DNA from: Escherichia phage vB_EcoS-phiEc3
Reading direction: 5' to 3' (one strand)
DNA length: 45,288 bases
Sequence record: NC_073323.1
Numbering within the stretch: position 1 is the first letter of the stretch; each line of letters starts with the position of its first letter. The notes beneath the pieces were generated by a model. That model did no database searches and was not told the DNA's origin. It saw only the letters and a program-made list of their open reading frames with translations. This document shows, piece after piece, positions 30,326 to 45,288 of the stretch. Made by a program: the position numbers and the translations under genes.

Positions 30326-30342
30326 TATTTTCGACCCTTAGT

Positions 30343-30365: not shown

Positions 30366-30384
30366 AGTTAAACAGATTCAGATA

Positions 30385-31017: not shown

Positions 31018-31070
31018 CGTGATTTCTCGCTTTTAAGTTTACTCCGGGAGCTGCCCGGCCAGTGATTAGA

Positions 31071-31099
31071 ACTATAATAGCTAACTATTCATGTGTCAA
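31071..31099 (-). promoter_or_regulatory. Sigma70-like promoter TTGACA-17-TATAGT with AATAG-N4-CTATT dyad
   Basis: Perfect -35, 17-nt spacer. Confidence 0.55.
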
Positions 31100-31318: not shown

Positions 31319-32526
31319 TCAGGACGTTTGTCATCTGCCGTTGCGACGCATGGCGCACCGGGCTTACGGGTAATGAAGTCTTTCAGTTCTTCTTCCGGTA
31401 CAATTTTAACCGCTTCGGTCGGTGTCATAAGAACTACCTTTTGCAGCATAGTACCGTACTTCTCGAATACTGCATCGGTATCTTTCCACGCACGATTACC
31501 CGGGCGTCCTTCAACCAGTTTATACCCCGGCACTTTCTTACCGGAATGTAACGCAGCAGCCATAGCTTTCTCAACCTTGTCGATGTGCTGGCGCAACAAC
31601 GGCAACTTCTCATACTCAGCTACGAGTTGCTCTGGCGTAAGCTCAAGTGCAAAGTCGTCCTCCAGTTCTTCAGCCAGTACAGAGTTAACGGTTTTTGTAC
31701 GCGCGGCGCATTGTTCAGAGAACCGGCACCACTGGCAACCATCTACCGACGGCTTAAAGTCTGACGCTTTCAGGTCCTTCTTGCCGCGGAAATAAGCATC
31801 AAGCGCTAACAGCGCGCGTTTCTGTGCGAACTTAGCGAACAGTTCCAGTCCTTCAACCGAGATGTCCCACTCTGTCGCACCCCCAGCGTAAGGCTGGAAG
31901 ATGACCAGACGAACGGTTGTTATGCTATAACGTCTCTTGAGTCGACGATAAACACCGAGAGCGTAAAGCATAAGCTGCTTGTTTTCTTTCGCTTCGACGC
32001 GATGCCGCCCGGTTTTCAGGTCGCCGATAATGAGCATGTGCTCGTCGGTGTTTGCCAGTTCCTGGACAGCAACGAGGTCAGCGGTTCCGAACGTCTCAAC
32101 GCCTTCATACCCCGGATGCAATACCTCAGTAAGATTAACACGCATTTCCAGCTTGGCGTAAGTCGCTACGTCTATAATCGCTTTGCAGTAGTCGGTGTAC
32201 TTGCGCACCTGCTCAATCATGTCCGCCGTAATCAGTACCGCGCCTTTCATCGGGCTGATTAGTGCCTTAATCTGGCCTTTGCCTTCATCCAGCACGTAAG
32301 CACCGACTTCACGCTCTAACGGCAGCGCAGTTCCGCGAATATAAGCGTTGAGATGGACCTCAGCTATGGTGTGCATTGCCGTGCCTAATACAGCGGCTTT
32401 ACCTGACGTGTTAGGGATATCTTTTTCACAGGCCAGTGATGCCGCGCAACTTAGCCACTTTTTAGCCCCTGACGGCGACAGTAAGGCATGTACATCGTTA
32501 TTGCCGCCGCGTTCTTTAAGAATCAT
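31285..32526 (-). CDS. PD-(D/E)XK exonuclease, Cas4/RecB-like with Fe-S cysteine set
   Basis: N-terminal Cys plus C-terminal CQWCRFSEQC (C-x2-C-x5-C); IGDLKTG nuclease motif. Confidence 0.65.
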   Translation of the reverse strand: MILKERGGNNDVHALLSPSGAKKWLSCAASLACEKDIPNTSGKAAVLGTAMHTIAEVHLNAYIRGTALPLEREVGAYVLDEGKGQIKALISPMKGAVLITADMIEQVRKYTDYCKAIIDVATYAKLEMRVNLTEVLHPGYEGVETFGTADLVAVQELANTDEHMLIIGDLKTGRHRVEAKENKQLMLYALGVYRRLKRRYSITTVRLVIFQPYAGGATEWDISVEGLELFAKFAQKRALLALDAYFRGKKDLKASDFKPSVDGCQWCRFSEQCAARTKTVNSVLAEELEDDFALELTPEQLVAEYEKLPLLRQHIDKVEKAMAAALHSGKKVPGYKLVEGRPGNRAWKDTDAVFEKYGTMLQKVVLMTPTEAVKIVPEEELKDFITRKPGAPCVATADDKRPEWNQVTEEDLE

Positions 32527-32885
32527 CGTAAACTCTCCAAATACAAGTTTAATGCCTGTAACTGTTCTTCTGTAGGAATGAAAGAATCATCGCGATGTAA
32601 GTCGCTTAACTGTTGCAACATTCCTGCGAACTGACGTCTTGCGTCAACAGCGTCCATGTGATGCTTTTCACTTTTATATATTAATGTTTTCGGGTAATCC
32701 TCAAGCCTGCCAGACGATTTATTCACGCGGAGCGCACGAGCTTCATGCACAATGTGAATGTACTTTTTGCCGTTTTGTAACACAGTAGCTACGCCGCTGC
32801 TCTTTCTGCGGTCGCCGACTGTGTAAACCTTGTCGCCACTACGCAGATTAAGCCACCATTTATCGGTCATACCCTGTTCTCCCAC
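32523..32885 (-). CDS. Hypothetical protein, 120 aa
   Basis: ORF in coupled array. Confidence 0.5.
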   Translation of the reverse strand: MGEQGMTDKWWLNLRSGDKVYTVGDRRKSSGVATVLQNGKKYIHIVHEARALRVNKSSGRLEDYPKTLIYKSEKHHMDAVDARRQFAGMLQQLSDLHRDDSFIPTEEQLQALNLYLESLR

Positions 32886-33139
32886 TGGTCAATTAAATGT
32901 CGTGTCTTATGGTCGCAGTGCATGGTCCACCCATACATCGACTCGAAGACATAAAAGTCAGGCTTGGCGAAAGTTGTGCGCTTAATCTGTGACACGTGAC
33001 GGCCTATATCTTTAGGCCGTGGTACTTTTCCTAAGTACGCCATCTCTTCCATCTGGTGCGCACCGGACGGAGCACGCAATAGCCATAGCGCCTCTGTGTT
33101 ATCCCGCCTGTCGACGGCTCGGTAGAGTTGGTAAATCAT
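32867..33139 (-). CDS. Hypothetical protein, 90 aa
   Basis: ORF in coupled array. Confidence 0.45.
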   Translation of the reverse strand: MIYQLYRAVDRRDNTEALWLLRAPSGAHQMEEMAYLGKVPRPKDIGRHVSQIKRTTFAKPDFYVFESMYGWTMHCDHKTRHLIDQWENRV

Positions 33140-33156
33140 AATTCCGACCCTCAGTT

Positions 33157-33176
33157 AAAGCGGCCCGAAGGCCGCG
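33157..33176 (-). terminator. Terminator-like hairpin (GCGGCC-CGAA-GGCCGC)
   Basis: GC stem; short T run on minus strand. Confidence 0.35.
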
Positions 33177-33182
33177 AGATAG

Positions 33183-33701
33183 TTATTCTTCTTCGAAATA
33201 CTTGTTCTTGATTGCTGTCAGGCGTTCCAGGTACTCAACCAGGTCTTCGTCTTTAATCGCGGCAATCTTCATCTTCTTACCTGTGAACTCTTCCAGCAGT
33301 TCATCAGAATCATCGCACGCGGCATCGCTAGGACCTTCATTAATTGCATCGTCGATGGCCTGAATCTGGTCACGCAGAGACTTGTAATCGACTTCTTCTT
33401 TCTCTTCTTCCGGTTCGGGCGCAGGTTCCTCTACTTTAGCTTTACGCGGCTTGCGTTTTGGCTTCTCTTCCTCCGCCGGTTTAGTGTCAACTACGTCTTC
33501 ACCCTCGACCGGGATTTCTTTTGTTTCTTCTTTTACAACAGTAGGCGTGATTGTTGCAGTTTCTGCGACACCACTGTCGACGTCTTTACCATATGGCGCC
33601 GTGATAGCCTTCGGCAGTTCAGTACGGCGTGCACTGTTCGCAGCAATCAGTTCATGCGCAACTACGAAACGTTCCAGTAATACTAAGAATTTCTCTAACA
33701 T
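33183..33701 (-). CDS. Hypothetical acidic protein with Lys/Pro-rich linker
   Basis: 172 aa, KPKRKPRKAK segment and acidic C-terminus. Confidence 0.5.
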   Translation of the reverse strand: MLEKFLVLLERFVVAHELIAANSARRTELPKAITAPYGKDVDSGVAETATITPTVVKEETKEIPVEGEDVVDTKPAEEEKPKRKPRKAKVEEPAPEPEEEKEEVDYKSLRDQIQAIDDAINEGPSDAACDDSDELLEEFTGKKMKIAAIKDEDLVEYLERLTAIKNKYFEEE

Positions 33702-33725
33702 TATTTATTCTCCTGTTTATTTGGG

Positions 33726-33953
33726 TTACTCGCCGTCGCCTTCTGTAAGGCTATCGTCTATTAATTCAAATTTACCGTTTGGGTGTTGAATAGCTTCTTG
33801 CCCGCAATGGTCGCAGACAACAAGTTTATCGAACCCATCAAACTCGTCCCCGACTACGCAAGAAAGTACAAATTTATGTTTTGTGCACACTTCCTGCGAT
33901 TCTCCGAAAATTACCCGGAAACATTTAGTTATAGCTCCAGTGATTATGTTCAT
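33726..33953 (-). CDS. Hypothetical Cys-rich small protein
   Basis: C...C...CDHC pattern; first gene downstream of promoter at 33982-34010. Confidence 0.5.
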   Translation of the reverse strand: MNIITGAITKCFRVIFGESQEVCTKHKFVLSCVVGDEFDGFDKLVVCDHCGQEAIQHPNGKFELIDDSLTEGDGE

Positions 33954-33981
33954 ATCTTCACCTCTCGTTTGGTATGGGCTA

Positions 33982-34010
33982 ACTATAATAGCGAACTATT
34001 CACTTGTCAA
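33982..34010 (-). promoter_or_regulatory. Sigma70-like promoter TTGACA-17-TATAGT with AATAG-N4-CTATT dyad
   Basis: Perfect -35, 17-nt spacer; divergent from HTH gene. Confidence 0.55.
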
Positions 34011-34014
34011 TGGG

Positions 34015-34043
34015 CTTTTCTAAAATAATTAATATGGTACTAT
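34015..34043 (+). promoter_or_regulatory. Candidate promoter for HTH gene (TACTAT -10, weak -35)
   Basis: -10 TACTATTCA matches conserved element; AAGGAG RBS at 34061. Confidence 0.3.
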
Positions 34044-34074
34044 TCACACATCAACTGACTAAGGAGTAATTGAC

Positions 34075-34290
34075 ATGCAACCATCCGAACTAGGCATCCG
34101 TGTAGAGCAACGCCGTAAAGAACTCGGCATCTCCCAGCGCCGTCTGGCTGTCCTGGCCGGTGTCTCCCAGGGCGCAATTAACCAGCTGGCTCTCGGTGTA
34201 ACTCAGGACGTCCGCCCGGCAACGTTGTTTAAACTGGCGGAAGTGCTGGAAGTAGACGCTAAGTGGCTGGCGTTCGGTGAAGGGGCTTGA
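34075..34290 (+). CDS. XRE-family helix-turn-helix transcriptional regulator
   Basis: HTH pattern LGISQRRLAVLAGVSQGAINQL; own RBS and terminator; opposite strand to neighbours. Confidence 0.7.
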   Translation: MQPSELGIRVEQRRKELGISQRRLAVLAGVSQGAINQLALGVTQDVRPATLFKLAEVLEVDAKWLAFGEGA

Positions 34291-34306
34291 CGCCCCTTTC
34301 TTTTTA
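34281..34306 (+). terminator. Intrinsic terminator (AGGGGC-TTGAC-GCCCCT then T run)
   Basis: Overlaps HTH stop codon; TTTCTTTTTAT tail. Confidence 0.6.
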
Positions 34307-34501
34307 TTGCACCTTTATCGGGTATCTTTTGCGAAACTTACCTAACCCGCAGTACACGCTGTAAGCCTCTGTGTAACTGAACACAACATGATACCCGCGC
34401 CCATAAGGAACTACGTTAAGAACTTCTACTACTTCGCCTCTGTGGTTGGTGTATTTATTACCTTTCAGTTCGTCGCTTACTTCTTTAAATTTACCGCTCA
34501 T
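34304..34501 (-). CDS. Hypothetical protein, 65 aa
   Basis: ORF coupled downstream of primase-helicase. Confidence 0.45.
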   Translation of the reverse strand: MSGKFKEVSDELKGNKYTNHRGEVVEVLNVVPYGRGYHVVFSYTEAYSVYCGLGKFRKRYPIKVQ

Positions 34502-36777
34502 TCCAAATCCTCCTCTGTCACTGTCAACATTTCATTCGGTTCGTATATTGTCTTTGGAATCTTGTTATCAGTTATTCTGGTGTTCAGCCTGTAACGACCT
34601 GGGATTATCTGATTGTTTTCGTCAGTACCCGGAACAAGATACCCAGCCTCAACCATTTTCTTAATCTTCCCGCGTTCTATGGCTTCTTTGGAGTTAAACG
34701 CCTTTGCGTTGGGGTCAGACTGCGCGAGCTTATTCGCTGCGGATACCGTGATGCCCTCGTTGCCGTTGTAGGTCCCCTCCGCCAGTTCAAACGCCGCGAG
34801 TATCGTGGCCTCGGAACTGTTGACGGCGTTCTCTATGGTTTTACGTACATTTTGTTTACCTTCGTTAGTTAACCCTTCTTCCCTCTCTTTCTCCTCGTCG
34901 GTCTTGAATGGCTCGAAGCCCCACGGCATCAATACAAGCGCCTTGTGCGGCTCAGGCAGGTCGAGGTTTACTATTGTGCCGTATTCCTCTGTGCTACCGA
35001 GGAACTCAACCGCGCGGTACTCTTTCGGCGGCGGTGCTTCACGGAACTGTACAGACTCCAGTACCATGCCAACCGTCTTCTGTTGAGGACCGTGCTTAAA
35101 TTTAGAGTGGTATACGTTTATCTGACGGTCGGTAGCGCGTTCGATTGTCAGTTCCACGTCGACACCCGCATACAATGCTCCACTGCCGCGGGCTTTCTTT
35201 CCGCCCTTCGGAGTATGGTGAACGACACCGACAGCGGCTTTAGTTGCATCGCGCACTTCTTTCAGGATGGCGATAACTTTACCCATACCGATTGCCGTTG
35301 ATGAACTGTTCTCGTCGAACTTATCAATCGTCAGGGCCAGCGTCTGGTTAAGGGTGTCGAAGGCAACCATGCCAATAGGTTCATCCCCTGCGGTTTCGCG
35401 CATCCTGCGGATTAGAGCTGGAATTTTTTTATCACCATGCGTAGCGAGTATTTCGCCCATATCGATGACATGTACATAATCTTTACCTTCCTCGCCATAT
35501 TTAGCCGCGAGTGCATCAATACGTGTTCGTGTAGCTGCACCACCCTCGCCGTCAATATAGAAATGGTGGCAACGTTGGGTGTCAGCCCCCGCAAACCGGT
35601 ACCCGGCGGCGCTCAGGTACATCATCCCCAGCGTATAGAATGATTTGTACGTGCCGGATTCCCCGACAATATCCCAGATACAATCCGACGGCATGTACCC
35701 CTCAACGACGAAATCAGCCTTTACCGGTTCTGGTAACTCGTCCTCTTCTTCAAGGTCTTCCAGGTCGTCGAGGCTGCATGAGACAGATTCACGCGCCCCC
35801 CAACCGATGGCCTCTGCGACTTCACTGAACGGCAGCCCGGTCGCATCGCACGCGTACTTCCACACCTCTTTCGGTGACAGGCCTTCTGTCGCCGTAATGT
35901 CTGTGTCGTGAATCATGGTTACGTTTGGCGCTTCATACCCCTCGCGCGGGAAGCACAGCAGGAAGTCGTCCGGGCGCGGTGTCGGGTCGCTGTAGTTTTC
36001 GGCATGTTCCGGTGTGGCTGGCATCTTAAGGCCGCGCGGCGTCATGACGCCGCCGTACTCAAACGCCAGTGCTTCAAACGCGTCTGTAAACGCGGTGCGC
36101 AGTTCTTCCGGTATCTGGTAATCCGATGCGCTGCTAACGTCAACGGCTGGGATGCCTTCCAGTAACTCGTTCGGGTCGATCAGGTCGTTGCGGCGCGACC
36201 AGATAACGGTAGCGCCGACCGGCGGCAGGTACATCGGCTGCGACAGAGTGAACCCGCTGCGGTCAGCGCCCATGCCTTCGAAGAAGTGCTCCAGCAAGCC
36301 ATGACGAACACGGATGATGTCGCCGCCTTCAACCGGGCGGCTCAGCGGCATGACGACGCGAAAGCGCGGTGACTCATCGGTATGTGATGCCGTGGTGTAG
36401 AGACACATCGCCCGGCGGCTGCGATTAACCAGGCGCACCGCTTCCTGGTACTCTTCCGGTGTTGCACTGTCGAAGTCCAGATACGCCAGCGACGATTTGC
36501 TCACAGACGCGTCACAGCGATAGAAGAAGCCTTTACGCGCTTGCTTAAAGTCACCGGTTTCCGGGTCTTTTACAGTGCTGTGCGCAGAGTCGCACGCGGC
36601 AGTAATATAGCCTGGCGCTGTCTTCGGGTTGATCCCGTCACGAACAGCATCGAGCGGCTGGATTAACTCTTTCAGGTCATCCAGTGTTGCCGTGTGTGTG
36701 GTTCTGACGTTTATATCCTTTTTCTCTGCCCGCGCGTTGCGACGTGACCACGAGTAGGATAAAATTACATCGGACAT
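34498..36777 (-). CDS. Primase-helicase (prim-pol-like N-terminus, RecA-like NTPase C-terminal half)
   Basis: YLDFDS and TASHT motifs N-terminally, P-loop-like GESGTYKS, 759 aa. Confidence 0.6.
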   Translation of the reverse strand: MSDVILSYSWSRRNARAEKKDINVRTTHTATLDDLKELIQPLDAVRDGINPKTAPGYITAACDSAHSTVKDPETGDFKQARKGFFYRCDASVSKSSLAYLDFDSATPEEYQEAVRLVNRSRRAMCLYTTASHTDESPRFRVVMPLSRPVEGGDIIRVRHGLLEHFFEGMGADRSGFTLSQPMYLPPVGATVIWSRRNDLIDPNELLEGIPAVDVSSASDYQIPEELRTAFTDAFEALAFEYGGVMTPRGLKMPATPEHAENYSDPTPRPDDFLLCFPREGYEAPNVTMIHDTDITATEGLSPKEVWKYACDATGLPFSEVAEAIGWGARESVSCSLDDLEDLEEEDELPEPVKADFVVEGYMPSDCIWDIVGESGTYKSFYTLGMMYLSAAGYRFAGADTQRCHHFYIDGEGGAATRTRIDALAAKYGEEGKDYVHVIDMGEILATHGDKKIPALIRRMRETAGDEPIGMVAFDTLNQTLALTIDKFDENSSSTAIGMGKVIAILKEVRDATKAAVGVVHHTPKGGKKARGSGALYAGVDVELTIERATDRQINVYHSKFKHGPQQKTVGMVLESVQFREAPPPKEYRAVEFLGSTEEYGTIVNLDLPEPHKALVLMPWGFEPFKTDEEKEREEGLTNEGKQNVRKTIENAVNSSEATILAAFELAEGTYNGNEGITVSAANKLAQSDPNAKAFNSKEAIERGKIKKMVEAGYLVPGTDENNQIIPGRYRLNTRITDNKIPKTIYEPNEMLTVTEEDLE

Positions 36778-36835
36778 GTTGTATTTCCTTCAGCAAATAA
36801 TTTGGCCTCGGCGTTCACCGCGTCGGGGCTTTCTT

Positions 36836-37126
36836 TTATCTTTTAGCCAGACATTCCATCAAATGTGCGTACTTACGATAATAATCTGCGACAATCTCAT
36901 CACCGAAATACTGATAAACGTAGGATAGGTGGTCGGAGACATCGATGGAAGCCGACATTGTGCTGAGTCTTCTTAGACTAATCGACTGCAATTCTTCTGT
37001 AACGCAAAACGGCAAATATGAGTCCAGTTTACAGGAAACGTTAAAACACAACGCATACTCACCTTGCACTAAATAGACCATATAAGCACTGTCATTTTCT
37101 TTATCGTGGAAAATTACACCTTTCAT
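36836..37126 (-). CDS. Hypothetical protein, 96 aa
   Basis: ORF in leftward early operon. Confidence 0.45.
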   Translation of the reverse strand: MKGVIFHDKENDSAYMVYLVQGEYALCFNVSCKLDSYLPFCVTEELQSISLRRLSTMSASIDVSDHLSYVYQYFGDEIVADYYRKYAHLMECLAKR

Positions 37127-37293
37127 TTCACGTTCTCCTTAATCCACGCTTCAACTTTATTACGGTCAAATGTTCCTGGTAAACGGCGCCCCATTACTTT
37201 AACGCTGCAATCAGGAAACTTTCCACTCTTAATCCAGTTATTGATTGTCTGGCGGGTGACGCCGATTAATTCTGCAACTTCATTGATAGTCAT
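37123..37293 (-). CDS. AlpA/excisionase-like HTH DNA-binding protein
   Basis: Motif MTINEVAELIGVTRQTINNWIKSGKFP; ATG at 37293 after AGGAG (track extends to 37383 via TTG). Confidence 0.6.
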   Translation of the reverse strand: MTINEVAELIGVTRQTINNWIKSGKFPDCSVKVMGRRLPGTFDRNKVEAWIKENVK

Positions 37294-37322
37294 CTCGCGC
37301 TCTCCTGTGTAATATGTATCGA

Positions 37323-37351
37323 AGTATAAGGCGGTAACTTTGTAAAAGCAA
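37323..37351 (-). promoter_or_regulatory. Sigma70-like promoter TTGCTT-17-TATACT (leftward early)
   Basis: 17-nt spacer; 8-bp inverted repeat TAACTTTG/CAAAGTTA at 37335-37342 and 37365-37372. Confidence 0.45.
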
Positions 37352-37398
37352 CCAAAACACCACGCAAAGTTACTAAAATACAAAAGATGCTACTGGTA

Positions 37399-37427
37399 TT
37401 GACTTTTACTTGAAAATATGCTAAGCT
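37399..37427 (+). promoter_or_regulatory. Sigma70-like promoter TTGACT-17-TGnTAAGCT (rightward early)
   Basis: Conserved with 4675-4703. Confidence 0.5.
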
Positions 37428-37430
37428 TCA

Positions 37431-37541
37431 CTGAGCTTGTGAGATATCGCAAGCGACCGCGGAGCGGCAGGGAACGCAACGCGTGCCATTAGGCACTTGA
37501 GTGTAGTTCCGCTGACGCTTTCGGAAGGGTCAAAGTCTATT
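37431..37541 (+). ncRNA. Candidate structured leader RNA, copy 2
   Basis: Paralogous to 4708-4817 with compensatory substitutions in two helices. Confidence 0.5.
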
Positions 37542-37609
37542 GTTAATCCCGCCTAAATATCCAAGTCACTGATAATTAAAAGTTTCTATAGTTGCCGTGA
37601 GCAAGGTAG

Positions 37610-37666
37610 AGAGTACTTCACTCCGCTGGGGTGGGCTAAAGCCCACCCGCTGCGTTGCGTACTCTT
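37610..37666 (+). terminator. Extended stem-loop, terminator/attenuator-like
   Basis: Inner GGGTGGGC-TAAA-GCCCACCC closed by AGAGTAC/GTACTCT, then TTTAAAG. Confidence 0.35.
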
Positions 37667-37707
37667 TAAAGAAACAAAAGAATCACAACGGCAACGTAAC
37701 TATTCTC

Positions 37708-37736
37708 TTGCACACCCCAACATAATAGGATACTAT
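37708..37736 (+). promoter_or_regulatory. Sigma70-like promoter TTGCAC-17-TACTAT (conserved element copy)
   Basis: Same core as 4580-4608 and 13949-13977; AGGAG RBS follows. Confidence 0.5.
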
Positions 37737-37770
37737 TCACTTATCGGAACGAGACAGAGGAGTGATGGTT

Positions 37771-37956
37771 ATGTTTAAGAAGGGTCAGTTGGTTAAAACA
37801 AAACGCGGCGGACAGTACGTAATAGTTACCCAGAATGAGGATGAATATAGTACCGCTGTAGACGTATGGGGTCTTGTACGAAAGAAACATGGTTACGCTT
37901 TCAGAGATAATTTAACACTCATCGGCAACAATTTTAAATTCAAAGGGGTGAAGTGA
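37771..37956 (+). CDS. Hypothetical early protein, 61 aa
   Basis: ATG 9 nt after AGGAG; track ORF begins at GTG 37762. Confidence 0.5.
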   Translation: MFKKGQLVKTKRGGQYVIVTQNEDEYSTAVDVWGLVRKKHGYAFRDNLTLIGNNFKFKGVK

Positions 37957-38189
37957 TGCAAATCATAATTACAGATAACACCGTTATATACGAAGAAGAT
38001 GGTGATACTCCCGAGAAAATAGGCGTAAATGTGGGTGATGTTTTCAATGTACTGGATTCCTGTGAGGATGGCTGGTGGATTAAGACAGGAAGATACACAA
38101 TCCTGGTAACTAAGGCAGAAGCGAAGGTATACACAACGGCATCTAATCATGATGCTCGTGCCGACGACTCTGAGGGAGGTTGCCGTTAA
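37953..38189 (+). CDS. Hypothetical early protein, 78 aa
   Basis: ATGA-coupled start. Confidence 0.5.
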   Translation: MMQIIITDNTVIYEEDGDTPEKIGVNVGDVFNVLDSCEDGWWIKTGRYTILVTKAEAKVYTTASNHDARADDSEGGCR

Positions 38190-38344
38190 TGAAAATTCGA
38201 ATAACTGACCGCAGGCTTATAGATTTCGGTATCTCGGTAGGTGATGTTTTTCTGGCGTTCAGCAGCAACCATTATGGTTTTATGATTGAGTACAAAGGGT
38301 CATTATTGTTCGTGTATCGGGATGAATGCGAGGTTCTGGTATGA
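38189..38344 (+). CDS. Hypothetical early protein, 51 aa
   Basis: RBS GAGGGAGG, TAATG coupling; below track cutoff. Confidence 0.4.
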   Translation: MKIRITDRRLIDFGISVGDVFLAFSSNHYGFMIEYKGSLLFVYRDECEVLV

Positions 38345-38502
38345 GAGAAGCATTCGAACGGTGGGCCATCGTCGAGGGTCTGCCGGTTAATAAGGGTTCG
38401 AAGAAAGAGTACCTGAACGTTAAGACGCGTCTCGCGTGGCGGGCGTGGAAAGCTGGTGCGAATGTAATGGCTGGCGCATTTGAGAAGAGAGGCGATTTAT
38501 GA
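38341..38502 (+). CDS. Hypothetical early protein, 53 aa
   Basis: ATGA coupling at both ends; below track cutoff. Confidence 0.4.
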   Translation: MREAFERWAIVEGLPVNKGSKKEYLNVKTRLAWRAWKAGANVMAGAFEKRGDL

Positions 38503-38684
38503 GCAAGTGGATTAAGTGTAGTGAGCGGATGCCGGAGCCTTATGAATACGTTCTTGTAACTGATTGTTTTGTTGGCTGTGAGGTTATGCGTGTTAATTCA
38601 GATGGCTACTGGGGGCCTGCAAAGAGTTTATATCACGGTGATATAACGCACTGGATGCCGTTACCTGAGCCGCCGGAGGTGTGA
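38499..38684 (+). CDS. DUF551-like phage protein
   Basis: C-terminal HWMPLPEPP motif characteristic of DUF551. Confidence 0.55.
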   Translation: MSKWIKCSERMPEPYEYVLVTDCFVGCEVMRVNSDGYWGPAKSLYHGDITHWMPLPEPPEV

Positions 38685-38718
38685 TGTTCAATAGTTTAAG
38701 ATTTTACTGAGTGACTTA

Positions 38719-38746
38719 CGCTGCTACACAGCAGCGTATCATTTTT
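38719..38746 (+). terminator. Intrinsic terminator (CGCTGCT-ACAC-AGCAGCG then T-rich)
   Basis: 7-bp stem followed by TATCATTTTTCT. Confidence 0.6.
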
Positions 38747-38808
38747 CTCATTTTTGTTCTATTTCACCAAACGCAACAATCGAAGCGACTATTGCAGGAG
38801 ACGCAACA

Positions 38809-38985
38809 ATGAAAACGTTCACAGAGAAACTTATGGGGTTCGTTGCAAAGCGAGACGCTGCGGCTCGTAGTTACCGTAAATGTGCCAACTGCGGCAGCGA
38901 GCAGGTACAGTTAATCTCGTACCTGGGCGACTCGGTTACACATAAGTGCAGAAAGTGCCGCCACGTACATTCGCAACACCAATAA
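38809..38985 (+). CDS. Zinc-ribbon small protein, 58 aa
   Basis: CANCGS...CRKCRH (two CxxC pairs), RBS AGGAG 8 nt upstream. Confidence 0.45.
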   Translation: MKTFTEKLMGFVAKRDAAARSYRKCANCGSEQVQLISYLGDSVTHKCRKCRHVHSQHQ

Positions 38986-38992
38986 AATTTAC

Positions 38993-39021
38993 TTGCACAC
39001 TAAGATAGAATAGGCTACTAT
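38993..39021 (+). promoter_or_regulatory. Sigma70-like promoter TTGCAC-17-TACTAT
   Basis: Contains GAATAGG-N-CTACTATTC dyad. Confidence 0.5.
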
Positions 39022-39052
39022 TCATTTACACAAACTAGAGGAGAGACAGAGG

Positions 39053-39181
39053 ATGAAAGATTATAGCGAAGTGACTTTAGGCGAGTTGCAGGACGAGTAT
39101 GAAGATATGCTCTACCCGTTCATCTGCGACGGAGATTACAACGGCGTCTATAACGGAGTGAGTGAAGAATATGAATACTAA
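39053..39181 (+). CDS. Hypothetical acidic peptide, 42 aa
   Basis: RBS GAGGAGAGACAGAGG then ATG; below track cutoff. Confidence 0.35.
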   Translation: MKDYSEVTLGELQDEYEDMLYPFICDGDYNGVYNGVSEEYEY

Positions 39182-39359
39182 AAACGAGCATTTGATTAAA
39201 GTTACCCCGGTATGGTCGGCGTGGGTTATCGCCCCCGACGGAAAGCACGTACCGAAATTTGTGTTCACTGATGAGAAAGTTGCGCGTGAGTGGCTTCGTG
39301 CAGGCAAGAAAGGTGAACGCGGCGTCATGAAGGTTGGGTTAGTAGGAGACGTAGTATGA
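39171..39359 (+). CDS. Hypothetical early protein
   Basis: Track ORF from GTG 39162; ATG at 39171. Confidence 0.45.
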   Translation: MNTKNEHLIKVTPVWSAWVIAPDGKHVPKFVFTDEKVAREWLRAGKKGERGVMKVGLVGDVV

Positions 39360-39796
39360 GTAACAAAAACGAAGTATTCGAGTACCTGATTGACCAGCTA
39401 CGGCAGCAGGTAAATAACAACCGGTGCGAAGACCTGGCGCATGAGGTGCAGTCACTTAAGAATCAGTTACGCGATGCGTCGGCGCAGATTAAGGAGTTGC
39501 AGAGTGAGTTACAGCATCAGATTGACCTGGCGGCGGGTGTGTATAGATGGTCTACCGCACATTTCGACGAGAAAGGTAAAGTCTTCAAGGTCGAGCGTGG
39601 GATTAAGACTGAGCAATCTGGTTGCCGTAAAGAAGATACTCATAGCCAAGGAACCGGAGTATCCGGGCGAGTTCGGGAAGGCGGTGTTAGGGTGACAGGA
39701 TGTCAGTCGGAGTGCAGTCATTTATGGCATTACACCGACGACCACTTAGTACATTGCGTTTTGTGTGGGTTAAAAAGGAGCGACGAAGCGCTATGA
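39356..39796 (+). CDS. Hypothetical protein, N-terminal coiled coil, C-terminal Cys/His cluster
   Basis: ATGA coupling to next gene supports full length; alternative frame 39441-39695 rejected. Confidence 0.5.
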   Translation: MSNKNEVFEYLIDQLRQQVNNNRCEDLAHEVQSLKNQLRDASAQIKELQSELQHQIDLAAGVYRWSTAHFDEKGKVFKVERGIKTEQSGCRKEDTHSQGTGVSGRVREGGVRVTGCQSECSHLWHYTDDHLVHCVLCGLKRSDEAL

Positions 39797-39996
39797 CCAG
39801 CATCTTATTTATCTGGGTATTGTCGGCGGGCCAGATGCAACTGGCGGCAACAGAAACGTTTTACTCAATGGAGGCGTGCCAGTCAGCGGCACGCGCCGCA
39901 GAGAACGCGCACTTCCTGTTTCAGGGGGACAAGCCCATCGATTCAGAGGTACGCGCTATCTGCTCACCTAAGCGACTTGGTAAACAGGAGAAATAA
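39793..39996 (+). CDS. Small secreted/membrane protein, 67 aa
   Basis: AAGGAG RBS; hydrophobic N-terminus TSILFIWVLSAG. Confidence 0.5.
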   Translation: MTSILFIWVLSAGQMQLAATETFYSMEACQSAARAAENAHFLFQGDKPIDSEVRAICSPKRLGKQEK

Positions 39997-39997
39997 C

Positions 39998-40192
39998 ATG
40001 GTACAGAGATACGAGTTAGAGTTGTTTCATCAGAAAGGTGGCTCGGTAAACCCGTGCGATGATGGTGGATACATAGAGTACGAAGATTACGCGAAACTCG
40101 AAGCCGAGTTACAGAAATACAAGGACCAGTTTCCTGATTACGTTGAGTGCGCGAACTGTGGGTCAGTTACACATGTGGAAGGGGTGGAGTGA
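39998..40192 (+). CDS. Hypothetical early protein, 64 aa
   Basis: RBS CAGGAG then ATG at 39998. Confidence 0.45.
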   Translation: MVQRYELELFHQKGGSVNPCDDGGYIEYEDYAKLEAELQKYKDQFPDYVECANCGSVTHVEGVE

Positions 40193-40485
40193 TGTCTCTG
40201 GCAACTGACATCCTGAAACGAAGCGGCCTTGCGCCGCTGTCACCGAGAGCGAACACCCGAATATACAAGCGCCGCCGTAACGCGCTGTACCCCGAGATAC
40301 AAGAACGGCGTAAAGCTATCCGCGCCTGTGGATTCCAGAACGGGAAGGCCGTTAATCTAGGTGAGTTCAAAACACAGGAACGTGCTGCAATCGCTAATCG
40401 GCTATTTAATTACTGGAAATCTCTTGGTTATGATGATATTCCGACGAAACCGCAGAGACGACAATACATCTGGAGACATAAATGA
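40192..40485 (+). CDS. Hypothetical basic protein, 97 aa
   Basis: ATG overlapping upstream stop. Confidence 0.45.
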   Translation: MSLATDILKRSGLAPLSPRANTRIYKRRRNALYPEIQERRKAIRACGFQNGKAVNLGEFKTQERAAIANRLFNYWKSLGYDDIPTKPQRRQYIWRHK

Positions 40486-40922
40486 CTACTATCGCGTTCG
40501 ACGGAAAGACAATGGCCTGCGACACCCGTGTTGTGTGCGGGAGTAACTGTTACAACACAGACACAAAGATATACGAGAACGATTTTGCTGTTATCGGGGT
40601 GGCTGGTGATGCGGGGGTGGGGACTATGCTTATCGATTGCCCTGATATTCTTCAGGCAAAGCACTATGACTTCGATTTCGAAGCCCTTGTGTTCGTGAAA
40701 GACACAGAAAAGGTGTATAAAGTCGCTTTTTATAAATCGTGGGATTGCGCCCTTAGTTCGGTTATTCCGGTTGCGGATGGCTTTGCAGCTGTTGGTTCCG
40801 GCGCACCTTATGCACTGGCGGCTATGGAATGCGGATATTCGGCACATGGTGGCGTAGCCGTTGCGTCGAAGTTCGACACCAACACCGGCGGCAAGATTAT
40901 TACCAAACAACTATTAGGATAA
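40482..40922 (+). CDS. HslV-like Ntn-hydrolase (proteasome beta-type peptidase)
   Basis: N-terminal MTTIAF (Thr nucleophile at position 2), [17 protein letters not shown] and [12 protein letters not shown] alignable to HslV. Confidence 0.6.
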   Translation: [146 protein letters not shown]

Positions 40923-40981
40923 TTCCTAAGCGTGGTATCCTCCAGTTACTGCATACTTAATACGCACCTGGAGGATTCATC

Positions 40982-41290
40982 TTGGATAAATTTACTGAAA
41001 CAGTGACAGGCTGGCTTCTCGCTGCCGCACTCGCCGGAGGGGTCATCGGACTACGACAACATAAGTCCGTTATTTCTGGACCCATCGACGGCTTATTCTT
41101 TATTGTAACCGGCTTCGCTTGCGCCGTATTCGGTGCGCCTCTCGCTGCCCAATGGTTCGGCATTACCGGGGAGCGTGAAATCGCTGGTCTGGGTTTCATC
41201 ATCGCTATTCTCTGGATGCCTATCTATTCCCGCCTCTCCGGTATCGTCGCCGGGGAATACATCTCACGTCGAGGAGGCCCGGATGAATGA
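40982..41290 (+). CDS. Holin (three predicted TM helices)
   Basis: TTG start 7 nt after GGAGGA; precedes endolysin. Confidence 0.55.
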   Translation: MDKFTETVTGWLLAAALAGGVIGLRQHKSVISGPIDGLFFIVTGFACAVFGAPLAAQWFGITGEREIAGLGFIIAILWMPIYSRLSGIVAGEYISRRGGPDE

Positions 41291-42021: not shown

Positions 42022-42086
42022 CACATAAGACTAATCCGACGATACTTAAATCACCTCCTGCTCCATCCCTCTGCTCTCCAGTTTTA

Positions 42087-42117
42087 TCCCGGCCCTGACC
42101 CAGCCGGGATTTTTTTT
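42087..42117 (+). terminator. Strong intrinsic terminator (TCCCGGC-loop-GCCGGGA then TTTTTTT)
   Basis: 7-bp GC stem and 7-T run after lysis cassette. Confidence 0.75.
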
Positions 42118-42202
42118 ATCTATTTTCTGTGATGACGAGTTGACTATTATCCTCGACCCTATTATATTTACTTCATCGACAACGAGAACGGAGTAGAGAG
42201 AA

Positions 42203-42403
42203 ATGGGCAACGTATCGACGATAGAAATAACCGAAGAACTCGAAGTTAAATGTATCGCATCAGCTATAATAGGGAATGGTTCGGTGGAAAAACTACAGAT
42301 GAGGGCTGCTGCGGGCTACATACGCAGGGCTAATAGCGCGCAGACTGATGTTTTACGTAAACGTTACCTCGTGAAAGCGTTAGAAATACTGGAGAATAAC
42401 TAA
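42203..42403 (+). CDS. Hypothetical protein, 66 aa
   Basis: ORF with ATG start. Confidence 0.45.
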   Translation: MGNVSTIEITEELEVKCIASAIIGNGSVEKLQMRAAAGYIRRANSAQTDVLRKRYLVKALEILENN

Positions 42404-42552
42404 TGAAAATCACAGATATCGAAGCATTCAAAGACGCGCAACTGATGGCGCGCATCGCAGTTAGTAACCTGAGCAACAGCATTCCAGCGGACGCGTTCTG
42501 GTTCGCTGCGATGCAGACACTTAAAGCAGCTTATGCAGGAGAGAAGAAATGA
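42403..42552 (+). CDS. Hypothetical protein, 49 aa
   Basis: TAATG coupling, RBS GGAGAA; below track cutoff. Confidence 0.35.
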   Translation: MKITDIEAFKDAQLMARIAVSNLSNSIPADAFWFAAMQTLKAAYAGEKK

Positions 42553-42746
42553 AAGTTAAAGCCGCTAAAATTCTCTGGTTAGCCGCCCTTGACTATGTGA
42601 CAGAGGGTAAAGTGTACGATGTGTACAACCCGACAGCTACTGGTTTCGGTTATATAGACTCCGACGACGACTGCTGTATTTTCATAGACTTTGGTAACGA
42701 TGAAGGTGATGGCTTCCACGGCGTTAAATGGGAGATTGTAGAATGA
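42549..42746 (+). CDS. Hypothetical protein, 65 aa
   Basis: ATGA-coupled. Confidence 0.45.
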   Translation: MKVKAAKILWLAALDYVTEGKVYDVYNPTATGFGYIDSDDDCCIFIDFGNDEGDGFHGVKWEIVE

Positions 42747-42901
42747 GCGAACAAGGTCAAGTAAGCCAACCACTACGGGTAGGCCGTAAAGTCAGCCACA
42801 CCCCGTTCCCGACACGCGAGGAACTGATGAAACGTAACAGTTTCCCTGGGCCGGACAAGAACAAGTATCTCAATCGCATGTGGGGAGAGCGTAAAGAATG
42901 A
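42743..42901 (+). CDS. Hypothetical protein, 52 aa
   Basis: ATGA coupling both ends; below track cutoff. Confidence 0.35.
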   Translation: MSEQGQVSQPLRVGRKVSHTPFPTREELMKRNSFPGPDKNKYLNRMWGERKE

Positions 42902-43101
42902 TTGTTAGCTATGAAATGCCATCACAGGGCCAATTTGTTGCGGTGTGGTTTGTACGGGATGCCCCATATTCGGCAACTCTTAGATGGGAATACGGGCAAC
43001 TTAAAGCCTATAACCACTCCGATGACTCCTGGGATTGCGAATGCGACCATGGGTATAGCGCCCAGGTGCTGGAATCATTAGAAGCAACTTTTTACAGGTG
43101 A
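42898..43101 (+). CDS. Hypothetical protein, 67 aa
   Basis: ATGA-coupled. Confidence 0.45.
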   Translation: MIVSYEMPSQGQFVAVWFVRDAPYSATLRWEYGQLKAYNHSDDSWDCECDHGYSAQVLESLEATFYR

Positions 43102-43107
43102 TAAGAA

Positions 43108-43281
43108 ATGACTAACAACGAATACGAGAAAGCATGCGTCGAACACGCGACAGGTGAGTCCGAAATCGCATGGATTGACGCCCACATCGAGCACCACTTA
43201 CGGCGGGTCGATAAACTGATGGAACGTCGCCGTGAGTTGATTAACCGCTTCAACCTGAACAAAGGTGACAGCAATGCCTAA
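43108..43281 (+). CDS. Hypothetical protein, 57 aa
   Basis: RBS AGGTGA; below track cutoff. Confidence 0.35.
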   Translation: MTNNEYEKACVEHATGESEIAWIDAHIEHHLRRVDKLMERRRELINRFNLNKGDSNA

Positions 43282-43552
43282 AATAACAATCGCATCACTC
43301 GAGCGTCGTATTCTGGTGCTTGAGTCGGAGAGACAGACGTTAGGTGGGCAACTGTCAATTAACGGTGAGTTTCAACTGGAGGCGTTTAAGCAGTTACTCA
43401 CACTCACGGCGGACATAGAAAATATGCTCAGCTTGCTGGAGTCAGGAGAGTGGTCAGAGCATTGCACTAAATCAGAGTTAGGCCAACGGCTTGAGTCGGA
43501 GATTACTAACATGCTTAGTGGTCTTGGGTGGTCGCAAGATGAAAGCGCCTGA
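43274..43552 (+). CDS. Hypothetical coiled-coil protein
   Basis: ATG at 43274 within track ORF 43265-43552. Confidence 0.45.
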   Translation: MPKITIASLERRILVLESERQTLGGQLSINGEFQLEAFKQLLTLTADIENMLSLLESGEWSEHCTKSELGQRLESEITNMLSGLGWSQDESA

Positions 43553-43721
43553 GCCAGTAGTTATCGATGGTGTCCTGTGGAAACCTTACTCGGTTAACCA
43601 CCTCGACGCTGACGGGAAGAAGTTCAGCTTCTACATTTTTGCAATCAGCCGAGAGCACGCCGCCTGTGTGGTCGATGATATACGAGAAACGGCGTGGCTC
43701 GGTGATGAGATAGTGGGGTGA
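43539..43721 (+). CDS. Hypothetical protein, 60 aa
   Basis: ATG at 43539 within track ORF 43491-43721. Confidence 0.4.
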   Translation: MKAPEPVVIDGVLWKPYSVNHLDADGKKFSFYIFAISREHAACVVDDIRETAWLGDEIVG

Positions 43722-43808
43722 GGGTATGAGTCTTGAGGCGGTTATTGGTCTTGTAGTGGCAAGCTATTTTATCGGCGTATTGGTTGGTTTTGTGTGGGGT
43801 CGAGAATA

Positions 43809-44090
43809 ATGGCGCGTACTGTTGCATCGAGATTCACTGATATTGAATCTGCGATAGAAGAGGCCGTCTATCGTAAATATGCAAACGCCAGTGAAACACA
43901 GAATTACGGTGTTATCTCGGTCAATGGCATGTTCGAAACACGCAGGGTGCGCGCTTGTCGACCGCAAGAGTTTATATGGTCTACAGAGGGGTTGGTTCCT
44001 CGGTGCCTCGTTCTTACTAACGGCAGCCATACGGTGTTCGTAGACCTGGATAAGAAAGACATAACGGTTACTAAGGGAGAGATTAATTGA
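43809..44090 (+). CDS. Hypothetical protein, 93 aa
   Basis: ATG at 43809 within track ORF 43794-44090. Confidence 0.45.
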   Translation: MARTVASRFTDIESAIEEAVYRKYANASETQNYGVISVNGMFETRRVRACRPQEFIWSTEGLVPRCLVLTNGSHTVFVDLDKKDITVTKGEIN

Positions 44091-44323
44091 TTACCAGCAT
44101 TCCGAACCTGATTGAAGAATTTGGCACGATGGCGGAGACATGCCGTCAAACCGGCATCAATGAGATGACGATTGCCAAGTACAGCAAAGACGTTGATTGC
44201 GAACGCCATGTAATTTATAACAACCGTCTGATGACGCACGTTAAGACAAGCCCGGTGTTATTCACGCGCCGTGGTATCACTAAAACAGAGCAACGCATTG
44301 CGCGAGAGGAGAGCGGGGAATGA
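44087..44323 (+). CDS. Hypothetical protein, 78 aa
   Basis: TTG start after GGGAGA. Confidence 0.4.
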   Translation: MITSIPNLIEEFGTMAETCRQTGINEMTIAKYSKDVDCERHVIYNNRLMTHVKTSPVLFTRRGITKTEQRIAREESGE

Positions 44324-44592
44324 TTGAATATGATAACTACCACATAAACCGGTGTGAGGCACTTGAATTTTTGTCCAGAAACTTCCGCGATTTCCCAGAA
44401 CACATGCCTAATGTACGCGAAGTTGCGGAGGGTATTTCCGAGAACATATTCAAAGGCTGGCGATTCGTCGTTATTGATTCTGGTGAGTTGGTTTTCGCTG
44501 ATTGCCTTTCACCATGTATTCGTAAAATAGACCTTGAGGAATTTAATGCAACTTTTAGTCTTTCCGAATGCCTGGGTTATAGCGGTAGCTAA
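44320..44592 (+). CDS. Hypothetical protein, 90 aa
   Basis: ATGA-coupled. Confidence 0.45.
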   Translation: MIEYDNYHINRCEALEFLSRNFRDFPEHMPNVREVAEGISENIFKGWRFVVIDSGELVFADCLSPCIRKIDLEEFNATFSLSECLGYSGS

Positions 44593-44651
44593 CGACCATT
44601 ACGGCGGCGACGGTAAACGAGCGCCACGCCACGGCCTATATAACTGATACA

Positions 44652-44676
44652 AGCCCTCTACGGAGGGCTTTTCTGT
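44652..44676 (+). terminator. Intrinsic terminator (GCCCTC-TACG-GAGGGC then TTTTCTGT)
   Basis: GC stem plus T run upstream of small terminase. Confidence 0.55.
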
Positions 44677-44768
44677 ACATCCCGCCCAATCCCCTTATAT
44701 AATCCCTTTAGACGCGTAGGGCGCGTCTGGTGCGCTCTGATGGTCAGACGCATATGCAAGGGGATTCT

Positions 44769-45278
44769 ATGAAGCTGAAACTTAAGCAGCCATCGCCAGA
44801 GGTGGTACAAGCTGCACATGAAGAAGCTGTTAGCGCAAACCGTCGCCGTAAACGACCGCGCGGTAAACAGAGCCTTTATCAATCATCCCGTAATTCCGCT
44901 GCGCTGTGGGACCCGGACTATTGCGACGAATTGATTCGTTTCTTTGACCGCACGTCGTGGGAGCTTGTGCCCACGTCCAAAGGTGACGAACGCCCGCTGA
45001 TTCAGGATAAACCGCCATCACTGGCCCGCTTCGCCTTACACATCGGCGTCACTATCCCTATTATTAAGCTTTGGCTGCGTGAGATTCCCGCATTTGCAGA
45101 AGCCTGGGAGACAGCACAGGCGCTGGAAGAGGCATACTTCACTGAAACGGGGGCCGCGGGCATCTCTGCTACGTTTGCTGCCGCGAAACTGGGCCTGAAT
45201 AAAACAGTTGTCGCCGAAGAAGTACGCGACGAGCCAATCAGCGAAGTAACAATTAAGGTGGTGTCCGGTGAACGTTAA
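44769..45278 (+). CDS. Terminase small subunit
   Basis: Basic N-terminal region (RRRKRPRGK), position directly upstream of large terminase frame; ATG after AAGGGGA (track ORF from 44730). Confidence 0.6.
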   Translation: MKLKLKQPSPEVVQAAHEEAVSANRRRKRPRGKQSLYQSSRNSAALWDPDYCDELIRFFDRTSWELVPTSKGDERPLIQDKPPSLARFALHIGVTIPIIKLWLREIPAFAEAWETAQALEEAYFTETGAAGISATFAAAKLGLNKTVVAEEVRDEPISEVTIKVVSGER

Positions 45279-45288
45279 TATCACGGCA

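Follow-up and report, generated by a model that had tools for sequence, protein, structure and literature searches.

Dense runs of small, often overlapping genes behind host-type promoters have been described in several phages, among them the immediate-early open reading frames (ORFs) of T4 such as the nrdC.x series, the class I genes of T7 and the host-takeover module of SPO1. These genes are mostly non-essential and mostly of unknown function, and their early timing and role in host shut-off have been shown experimentally. A run of the same kind, known from sequence, begins at position 37771 of Escherichia phage vB_EcoS-phiEc3 (NC_073323.1), where an array of small ORFs was noted at 37771-40485, and this array is the subject of the present report. 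The stretch of DNA analyzed (the window) is 45.3 kb long and is the complete genome of a Kagunavirus-type siphophage (subfamily Guernseyvirinae), a virulent phage of Escherichia coli. Coordinates refer to the plus strand unless marked (-), and the 12 small genes that we accept are numbered o1 to o12.

The closest described systems are the corresponding blocks of published Kagunavirus and Jerseyvirus genomes, such as those of vB_Eco_K-01 (PQ435593), K1G (GU196277), fFiEco02 (MT711523) and UTI-CM001 (OM810255). As in the window, these blocks lie between the helicase-primase and helix-turn-helix (HTH) genes and the lysis cassette, and the gene order is the same; the records annotate the same ORFs, as hypothetical proteins. 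Region 37300-41000 is 96.8% identical in nucleotide sequence to vB_Eco_K-01 and matches 374 phage records, nearly all of them Guernseyvirinae of Escherichia and Salmonella. There are also differences: the contents of individual slots vary from phage to phage, vB_Eco_K-01 has one additional gene of 59 amino acids (aa) ahead of o12, K1G and fFiEco03 lack the peptidase gene and have a holin gene directly after the o12 homologue, most relatives lack o6, and some relatives' records annotate ORFs at 38711-38812 and 37597-37725 that the comparisons described below indicate to be non-coding. The block is thus a normal accessory region of a well-sampled genus, made up of genes listed as hypothetical proteins in close relatives, and no new kind of system. 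New here are a regulatory map, the separation of core from swappable genes, the assignment of o12 as a probable DNA-binding protein and the deletion of two spurious coding sequences (CDSs) from the gene list. The layout, the conservation pattern and the domain-level similarities reported here are direct observations. Kagunavirus phages are in development for therapy and as a small chassis for synthetic biology, and about one-third of their genes, this block included, are without known function. The practical yield is therefore a cleaned list of 12 genes with two non-coding CDSs flagged, a map of two predicted promoters, their shared palindrome and two terminators, and a division into core (o4, o10 and o12) and swappable genes that can point experimenters to the deletions that the phage is likely to tolerate and to the proteins most worth studying first.

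Our best overall explanation, which we consider likely, is that the locus is a rightward accessory block of a virulent Kagunavirus organized as two transcription units. A host-type promoter, P1, would drive the coupled genes o1 to o5, and this first unit would stop at a strong and conserved terminator, T1. A second promoter, P2, a near-copy of P1 together with its 5' untranslated region (UTR) and ribosome-binding site, would drive o7 to o12 and then the genes for an HslV-like peptidase, two holins and the endolysin, with the transcript probably terminating at T2. A phage HTH protein most likely binds a palindrome lying over the -10 element and would switch the promoter set together. In this arrangement o4, o10, o12 and the regulatory DNA appear to be held constant, with the slots between them exchanging small genes among relatives, and the other products (SH3-like barrels, a DUF551 domain, zinc ribbons and a coiled coil) are most likely small modules that bind host or phage macromolecules.

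Gene density and translational coupling

Between 37771 and 40485 the plus strand contains 13 ATG-started ORFs of at least 40 codons, which together cover 93% of the sequence. First-order Markov simulations gave a mean of 3.7 ORFs and 22% coverage, and neither the observed coverage nor the observed number of coupled junctions was reached in any of 1,000 runs; the minus strand of the same interval holds 3 ORFs with 27% coverage. All 12 accepted genes start with ATG and have a Shine-Dalgarno (SD) motif of the GGAG/GAGG type 5 to 12 nt upstream. From o1 to o12 the spacings are -1, -1, -4, -4, +124, +67, -11, -4, -4, +1 and -1 nt, followed by -4 nt between o12 and the peptidase gene. Nine of the 11 junctions in the array, and the o12/peptidase junction as well, are therefore overlapping or abutting (-11 to +1), each with an SD motif within the upstream gene, the arrangement that defines a translationally coupled operon.

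The ATGA and TAATG stop-start overlaps pointed out in the initial annotation, which had been made from the sequence alone, agree with these spacings (ATGA, TAATG and TGATG), and the coordinates it gave for four ORFs of fewer than 60 aa (38189-38344, 38341-38502, 38809-38985 and 39053-39181) proved exact. Its picture of dense, small, coupled genes holds; its count of about 14 is too high, 12 being supported. Nor does the coupled block end at 40485, the limit of the noted interval, since it runs on into the peptidase gene at 40482-40922, and the coupling does not make it a single array, the block being broken into two units by the predicted terminator and second promoter.

Coding capacity was assessed by the ratio of non-synonymous to synonymous differences (pN/pS) in pooled Nei-Gojobori comparisons against the window sequence, with identical homologues collapsed. 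In 11 of the 12 ORFs the in-frame ratio lies between 0.09 and 0.51, compared with about 0.8 to 3.4 in the two shifted frames of the same alignments: 0.22 for o1, 0.38 for o2, 0.19 for o3, 0.31 for o4 (over 19 distinct homologues), 0.38 for o5, 0.19 for o7, 0.25 for o8, 0.51 for o9, 0.16 for o10, 0.32 for o11 and 0.09 for o12. Taken qualitatively, as pooled non-independent pairs must be, these ratios indicate purifying selection on all ORFs except o6, which has no diverged close relative for such a comparison and has protein-level homologues in 973 phage records. The twelve small genes are real, and the conservation of the short ORFs among homologues, which the initial annotation had left to comparison with other phages, is borne out by the existence of those homologues and by their ratios.

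Three further ORFs were rejected. An 84-codon frame at 39441-39695 lies out of frame within o9, for which the out-of-frame pN/pS is 0.93 to 1.22; a 33-codon frame at 38711-38812 has a pN/pS of 0.91 and spans the terminator; and a 42-codon frame at 37597-37725 has a pN/pS of 1.2. The last two are annotated in PQ435593 as CDS0025 and CDS0031, and on these comparisons both are probably annotation errors.

Predicted promoters, operators and terminators

The putative promoter/operator P1 (CTTGCACACCCCAACATAATAGGATACTATTCA, 37707-37739) has a -35 element TTGCAC at 37708-37713, a 17-nt spacer and a -10 element TACTAT at 37731-37736. A second copy, P2, is found at 38992-39024 with its -35 element at 38993-38998 and its -10 element at 39016-39021. 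The two share a 33-nt motif, CTTGCACAC-N11-AGGNTACTATTCA, which precedes the start codon of o1 by about 35 nt and that of o7 by about 30 nt and has 4 copies in the genome versus 0 expected. Similarity between P1 and P2 extends through the 5' UTR and SD motif, where repeat families D2 and D3 are 72-77% identical over 53 and 22 nt. Relatives were compared in the form of 23 loci from viral metagenome contigs, retrieved with the peptidase as probe, and 9 GenBank loci; both copies of the motif are present, each at its position, in all Kagunavirus loci examined.

A palindrome, AATAG-N4-CTATT (full form TGAATAG-N4-CTATTCA), overlaps the -10 element in both P1 and P2. Seven copies of the motif's 18-nt core, ATAATAGGNTACTATTCA, which contains the palindrome, are present in the genome versus 0.1 expected, at 4577-4594(-), 13946-13963(-), 31074-31091, 33985-34002, 34029-34046, 37722-37739 and 39007-39024. 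Two of these copies flank the promoter of a plus-strand XRE-type HTH gene (34075-34290), and two point into minus-strand islands within the structural module. The motif itself is not new, because the same consensus, as its reverse complement, has been published for Kagunavirus fBC-Eco01 as seven "phage promoters" predicted by PHIRE (PMC9825357). Most likely the palindrome is the operator of a phage HTH protein that acts as a dimer and would co-regulate these promoters; phage-encoded candidates are the XRE-type protein, the HTH_17 protein at 37123-37383(-) and o12. MerR-like activation of P1 and P2 by the HTH_17 protein was considered and set aside, since the spacer is 17 nt instead of 19 to 20 nt.

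The two minus-strand islands have contents of their own. Behind one motif copy, the island at 12061-13933(-) contains genes for a hydrophobic protein of 72 aa (13715-13933), for a protein of 411 aa that matches metallophosphoesterases weakly (12546-13781) and for one of 162 aa in which a PNKP-type HAD phosphatase domain is recognized at E = 8.7e-20 (12061-12549), and by these domain matches it resembles an RNA-repair (polynucleotide kinase/phosphatase-like) module. Directly behind the copy at 4577-4609, and opposite in direction to the structural genes around it, a 67-aa acidic ORF without a family match (4349-4552(-)) looks like an inserted accessory gene.

The first unit would end at T1 (38717-38756), an intrinsic terminator found by terminator scan, with a perfect 9-bp stem (TACGCTGCT/AGCAGCGTA) and a 4-nt loop (stem-loop 38717-38738) followed by a U-rich tract. 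Its predicted folding free energy (dG) is -17.7 kcal/mol (z = -5.3), and it is invariant among aligned relatives. The 124-nt spacer between o5 and o6 is 75-100% identical across Kagunavirus and Jerseyvirus loci, and at least 91% identical in most Kagunavirus loci; the 67-nt spacer between o6 and o7 is conserved in all Kagunavirus loci. These intergenic blocks are more conserved than the flanking synonymous sites, with pS of about 0.05 versus 0.18 to 0.45. Between T1 and the start of o6, at 38759-38817, are two tandem units of about 30 nt, CTATT-N8-ACGCAACAAT, which are 76% identical to each other and invariant in relatives, and GCAACAAT repeats are found at 38770-38805, upstream of P2; the tandem units are candidate protein-binding sites upstream of P2. 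The second terminator, T2 (42086-42118), has the form CCCGGC...GCCGGG followed by 8 U, right after the endolysin gene (dG = -13.8 kcal/mol, z = -3.6). No terminator was found by scan or in the sequence from o12 to the endolysin gene before T2.

Upstream of P1 is a further promoter-like site, P0 (37399-37427), recognized by eye as TTGACT-17 nt-TAAGCT with TG at -15/-14 (extended -10). It is near consensus and absent from the list produced by the consensus scan. Between P0 and P1 lies a non-coding structured stretch, 37428-37700 (folding z-score -3.4), with a long hairpin at 37458-37527 and a GC hairpin, GGGGTGGGCTAAAGCCCACCC (about 37627-37647), just before P1. Among relatives this leader exists in at least three unrelated sequence versions, each with the GC hairpin kept at the same place; P0 is conserved in relatives with version A or version B, and between these versions compensatory changes affect 7 of the 41 predicted pairs of the long hairpin. 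A scan of 36800-41000 against Rfam gave no match. The stretch may correspond to a small early RNA or to a transcript associated with an origin. The initial annotation had placed the array downstream of a rightward promoter and leader. A long non-coding stretch does lie between the upstream promoter and o1, but o1 appears to have its own conserved promoter, P1.

Conserved genes and the proposed run into the lysis cassette

Gene order is conserved among the relatives, and individual slots hold alternative genes. In tblastn searches of 50,697 phage records, o12 was found in 490 records, o10 in 473, o4 in 141, o11 in 101, o3 in 48, o7 in 24 and o8 in 16. By these counts and the locus comparisons, o10 and o12 are core to Guernseyvirinae, o4 is core to Kagunavirus and the remainder are accessory, with o3, o6, o7 and o8 the swappable genes.

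The best conserved gene, o12 (40192-40485), encodes a 97-aa protein with an isoelectric point of 11.0, a value compatible with DNA binding and not diagnostic of it. The protein combines MSLATDILK, an invariant motif at its N-terminus, with a basic linker and a beta-hairpin plus helix resembling those of AP2 domains; a longer version starting at GTG 40147 was rejected because of the invariant N-terminus. The AP2/ERF DNA-binding domain (PF00847) is known from transcription factors of plants and apicomplexans, from phage proteins and from proteins associated with homing endonucleases. The o12 family has in common with it a sequence pattern, GV...W.A......LG.F.T.E.A..A, and the beta-hairpin and helix, and adds the invariant N-terminal MSLATDILK and a C-terminal IPxKPxxRxY, both foreign to AP2. 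In the family alignment, PF00847 is matched by 8 of 41 members, with E = 1e-6 for the best; the window protein itself matched no Pfam family at E up to 1 and so falls short of an AP2 assignment by sequence, and PDB searches with the single sequence and with a profile gave chance matches only. In the structure model the beta-hairpin and helix best match AP2 domains, with the first strand replaced by a helix. Probably o12 is a regulator that binds DNA at specific sequences and has an AP2-like fold. The suggestion that the genes of the array serve host shut-off or anti-defence appears not to suit this best-conserved member, which looks like a DNA-binding regulator.

The 67-aa product of o10 (39793-39996; phrog_3766, E = 2.5e-36) has hydrophobic residues at positions 3-19 (maximum Kyte-Doolittle value 1.59 over 15 residues), a segment of signal-peptide or membrane-anchor length, and invariant cysteines at 29 and 57; these features are retained in homologues down to 36% identity. 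The family is narrow: a word index gave no relative below 64% identity, and a full HMMER search gave 19 representatives, including some repetitive false matches. The earlier description of o10 as signal-peptide-like thus holds for its hydrophobic N-terminus, but in the window protein nothing basic precedes the hydrophobic core and a lipobox is absent; an in-frame extension of the MRAKE type occurs in some relatives. A Foldseek search of the PDB, made with an unreliable AlphaFold2 (AF2) model as query, gave nothing below E = 0.66, and fold likenesses to T4 Dmd and T7 Gp2 (E = 1.8 to 3.1) were not counted. The o10 protein is probably envelope-associated. The third core gene, o4 (38341-38502), encodes a 53-aa basic protein (phrog_15836, E = 3.2e-31).

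The start of the peptidase gene overlaps the o12 stop codon (ATGA). Its product is an HslV-like Ntn peptidase (phrog_1040, E = 2e-34; weak Proteasome match in Pfam), and it is missing from some relatives. Beyond it, a hairpin at 40934-40981 (dG = -22.3 kcal/mol, z = -3.3) pairs the holin SD sequence, GGAGGA at 40970-40975, with UCCUCC at 40940-40945. The spacer 40923-40981 is near-invariant in 8 phages, whether the peptidase gene or o12 is upstream, leaving no variation for a covariation analysis. From this pairing, the hairpin may act as a translational brake on the holin.

This arrangement bears on a second explanation, in which o7 to o12 form a lysis or late-control module, o12 regulating lysis or late transcription and o10 tuning lysis timing or blocking superinfection. 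Both genes are fixed just upstream of the peptidase or holin genes in all loci examined and are found in hundreds of records, no terminator is detected between them and the endolysin gene, and T2 follows that gene directly. A DNA-binding-like o12, the hydrophobic N-terminus and two invariant cysteines of o10, and a conserved hairpin that would sequester the holin SD, suggesting that the unit is transcribed before lysis is wanted, are consistent with it, as is the middle-class peak of the endolysin of a related phage (PMC12645636). Nevertheless, neither o10 nor o12 shows homology to a known antiholin, spanin, superinfection-exclusion protein or late activator, an Rz-like candidate is located elsewhere (4928-5314), and the near-identity of P2 and P1 points to shared regulation of two units. 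We regard a dedicated lysis or late-control role as possible but doubtful, and prefer the accessory block of two co-regulated units.

Several points count against the two-unit interpretation itself. Its promoter, operator and terminator assignments all rest on sequence; what the promoters and operators do, when the genes are expressed and how any product acts biochemically are likewise inferred. Just 7 of the 12 sigma-70 consensus positions agree in P1 and P2, neither of which was listed by the consensus scan. Co-transcription of o7 to o12 with the lysis genes is argued from the lack of a detected terminator, and a promoter could lie concealed in the conserved spacer of 59 nt ahead of the holin gene. 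For o10, AF2 was confident in one of five models, and that model, which buries the hydrophobic N-terminus as beta strands, does not support an envelope location. The pooling behind the pN/pS values is to be set on the same side.

The label "early", which the initial annotation had attached to the array, is not supported by these results. P1 and P2 look like host sigma-70-type promoters, but the second half of the array is apparently co-transcribed with the lysis cassette, and if P2 truly runs into the lysis genes, the second unit is not a classic early module. In this it would differ from the early clusters of T4, T7 and SPO1, whose dense small-gene runs behind host-type promoters the array otherwise resembles. 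RNA sequencing of Kagunavirus K1B4 placed 4 of 57 genes in the early class, the sole early gene named being the leftward HTH gene, and the endolysin gene in the middle class (PMC12645636); that paper and its supplements do not specify the small early genes. The literature on Guernseyvirinae timing beyond it yielded nothing usable.

Exchangeable genes and neighboring features

The remaining genes of the first unit begin with o1 (37771-37956), which encodes a 61-aa basic protein (phrog_12538, E = 2.9e-28) with conserved ends, N-terminal MFKKGQLV and C-terminal LIGNNFKFKG, and a highly variable middle in the family alignment. The 77-aa acidic product of o2 (37956-38189) may be an SH3-like small beta-barrel, to judge from sub-threshold signals: a Pfam SH3_1 match at E = 0.012 (15.6 bits, below the cut-off of 22.9), many weak matches to SH3 domains in the PDB (E = 1e-3 to 0.3) and a GenBank note on the fFiEco02 homologue citing HHpred FeoA/SH3 at 96%. 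Its neighbor o3 (38189-38344, 51 aa; phrog_30395, E = 1.3e-39) is a paralogue of o2 (BLASTP E = 4e-6, 31% identity), and the SH3-like signals, below threshold, concern both proteins.

A stand-alone DUF551 domain makes up o5 (38499-38684, 61 aa), which matches PF04448 at E = 1.3e-15 with a score of 58.4 bits (cut-off 22), its residues 3-60 aligning with profile positions 1-68 of 68. The DUF551 seen in the initial annotation is confirmed, but it spans the whole protein and not its C-terminus alone. DUF551 is a portable domain carried by the V2 variant of Ea22 and by YfdS (PMC10834534 and PMC4776307), and in Ea22 the N-terminus and coiled coil are conserved, whereas the C-terminal domains are interchangeable (PMC10834534). 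The lambda exo-xis/nin region proteins thus have DUF551 in common with o5, and a conserved coiled coil with variable C-termini in common with the o9 family. They differ in that DUF551 stands alone in o5, o9 has no match to the Ead_Ea22 Pfam family, and a lysogeny-favoring role is inapplicable to a virulent phage.

Between the two units, o6 (38809-38985) encodes a 58-aa zinc ribbon with CxxC pairs at 26-29 and 47-50. The profile match to phrog_1474 (E = 1.7e-14 on residues 5-55) and the two CxxC pairs place it in the T-even NrdC.2-like zinc-ribbon family, in agreement with the zinc ribbon first proposed for this position. All but about 6 of its 973 tblastn records are T4-like phages, at 34-46% identity. 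The relationship of o6 to the zinc-ribbon half of the T-even nrdC.2 ORF is one of true homology: in IME08 the match falls within the ORF named nrdC.2, in its C-terminal half, and that ORF is adjacent to the thioredoxin gene nrdC. The name NrdC thioredoxin, given to the o6 homologue in PQ435593, was rejected, there being no match to a thioredoxin family in Pfam or NCBIfam; the GenBank name "NrdC-like thioredoxin" is a labelling artefact, because the homologous T-even ORF is nrdC.2, the neighbor of nrdC. In the window o6 sits precisely between the conserved T1 and P2 flanks, and in seven relatives the site is empty with exact junctions, the T1 block being joined straight to the P2 block. These junctions mark o6 as an inserted cargo gene, with T1 on one side and P2 on the other, and by its matches it was acquired from, or is shared with, T4-like phages.

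The second unit begins with o7 (39053-39181), for a very acidic 42-aa protein (phrog_35344, E = 7e-32), and o8 (39171-39359), for a basic 62-aa protein without a PHROG family; all 16 records with o8 are Escherichia Kagunavirus-type phages, at 66-100% identity, and the gene is unannotated in K1G. In the 146-aa product of o9 (39356-39796), whose residues 1-97 match phrog_6094 at E = 2e-31, the N-terminal part forms a coiled coil (about residues 5-60, with many weak coiled-coil matches) and is followed by a variable Cys/His-rich C-terminus, in agreement with the coiled coil/Cys-His protein of the initial annotation. Its homologues range from 89 to 230 aa and have unrelated C-termini, and a sequence search of the PDB gave chance matches only. 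Finally, o11 (39998-40192) encodes an acidic 64-aa protein with a C-terminal CxxC (phrog_29624, E = 2.6e-29). Its assignment as a Lar restriction-alleviation protein (PF14354) was rejected: the match has an E value of 0.087 and 13.5 bits against a cut-off of 28.6, it covers profile positions 14-38 only, and the protein has three cysteines and a single CxxC pair, where a four-cysteine zinc ribbon is required.

The turnover of these genes could also be read as an arms race, in which the variable genes (o2/o3, o6 to o9 and o11) encode counter-defence proteins made right after DNA entry. Slots change quickly among close relatives, o3, o7 and o8 are rare (16 to 48 records), o6 is common to unrelated phage families, and the gene products combine small size with a strongly acidic or basic character. 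Motif copies also point into the two minus-strand islands with the acidic 67-aa ORF and the metallophosphoesterase-like and PNKP-type HAD phosphatase proteins, a pair that recalls, by analogy, phage RNA repair against anticodon nucleases. Yet searches of o1 to o12 against Pfam, NCBIfam and PHROGs, with fold comparison for o10 and o12, gave no significant match to a named anti-restriction or anti-defence family, NCBIfam giving nothing meaningful at all, and the Lar match of o11 fails. In BASEL phenotyping, Kagunavirus isolates showed high sensitivity to restriction-modification systems, and their sensitivity to Old varied (PMC11990801). Small accessory genes that serve other purposes typically turn over just as fast. 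An anti-defence island is therefore unlikely, and the anti-defence role offered in the initial annotation finds no backing in these results.

More speculatively, the conserved terminator, promoter, UTR and ribosome-binding-site blocks might serve as docking sequences for the exchange of cargo genes within Guernseyvirinae and, as for o6, with T4-like phages. At least one variable cargo gene would then encode a new counter-defence or host-shut-off protein, and one repressor acting through TGAATAG-N4-CTATTCA would switch the whole set, its regulon including the PNKP-like RNA-repair island; we think this combination improbable as it stands.

That the shortest ORFs, o3, o6 and o7, are chance reading frames or annotation artefacts is already disfavored and very improbable: they have only 42 to 58 codons, are unannotated in K1G and K1ind2 and have the non-coding frames 38711-38812 and 37597-37725 as annotated neighbors in relatives, but each has an SD motif and an ATG start, the low ratio of o3 reflects 15.5 synonymous versus 10.5 non-synonymous differences in a gene with a paralogue and a strong family match, that of o7 reflects 36.5 versus 33.5 differences in a protein whose divergent homologues retain a TLGEL...CDGD motif, and o6 has its protein homologues in hundreds of T4-like genomes.

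Elsewhere in the genome, the packaging and structural genes occupy 28-24053, and the replication genes occupy 24216-37383(-), the last two being those for the helicase-primase (34498-36777) and the HTH_17 protein. From 37771 onward the plus strand carries the small-ORF array, the peptidase gene, the two holin genes, the endolysin gene and further small ORFs. The Rz-like candidate at 4928-5314 is a 128-aa protein with an N-terminal transmembrane segment, a Gln/Ala-rich helical region and a weak DUF2514 match (E = 0.0094); if it is a spanin component, it is distant from the holin-endolysin cassette. Two sigma-70-like promoters follow the endolysin stop codon and flank T2, TTGACA-17-GATACT at 42018 and TTGACT-17-TATATT at 42140, and downstream of these sites is a second array of small ORFs at 42204-45288.

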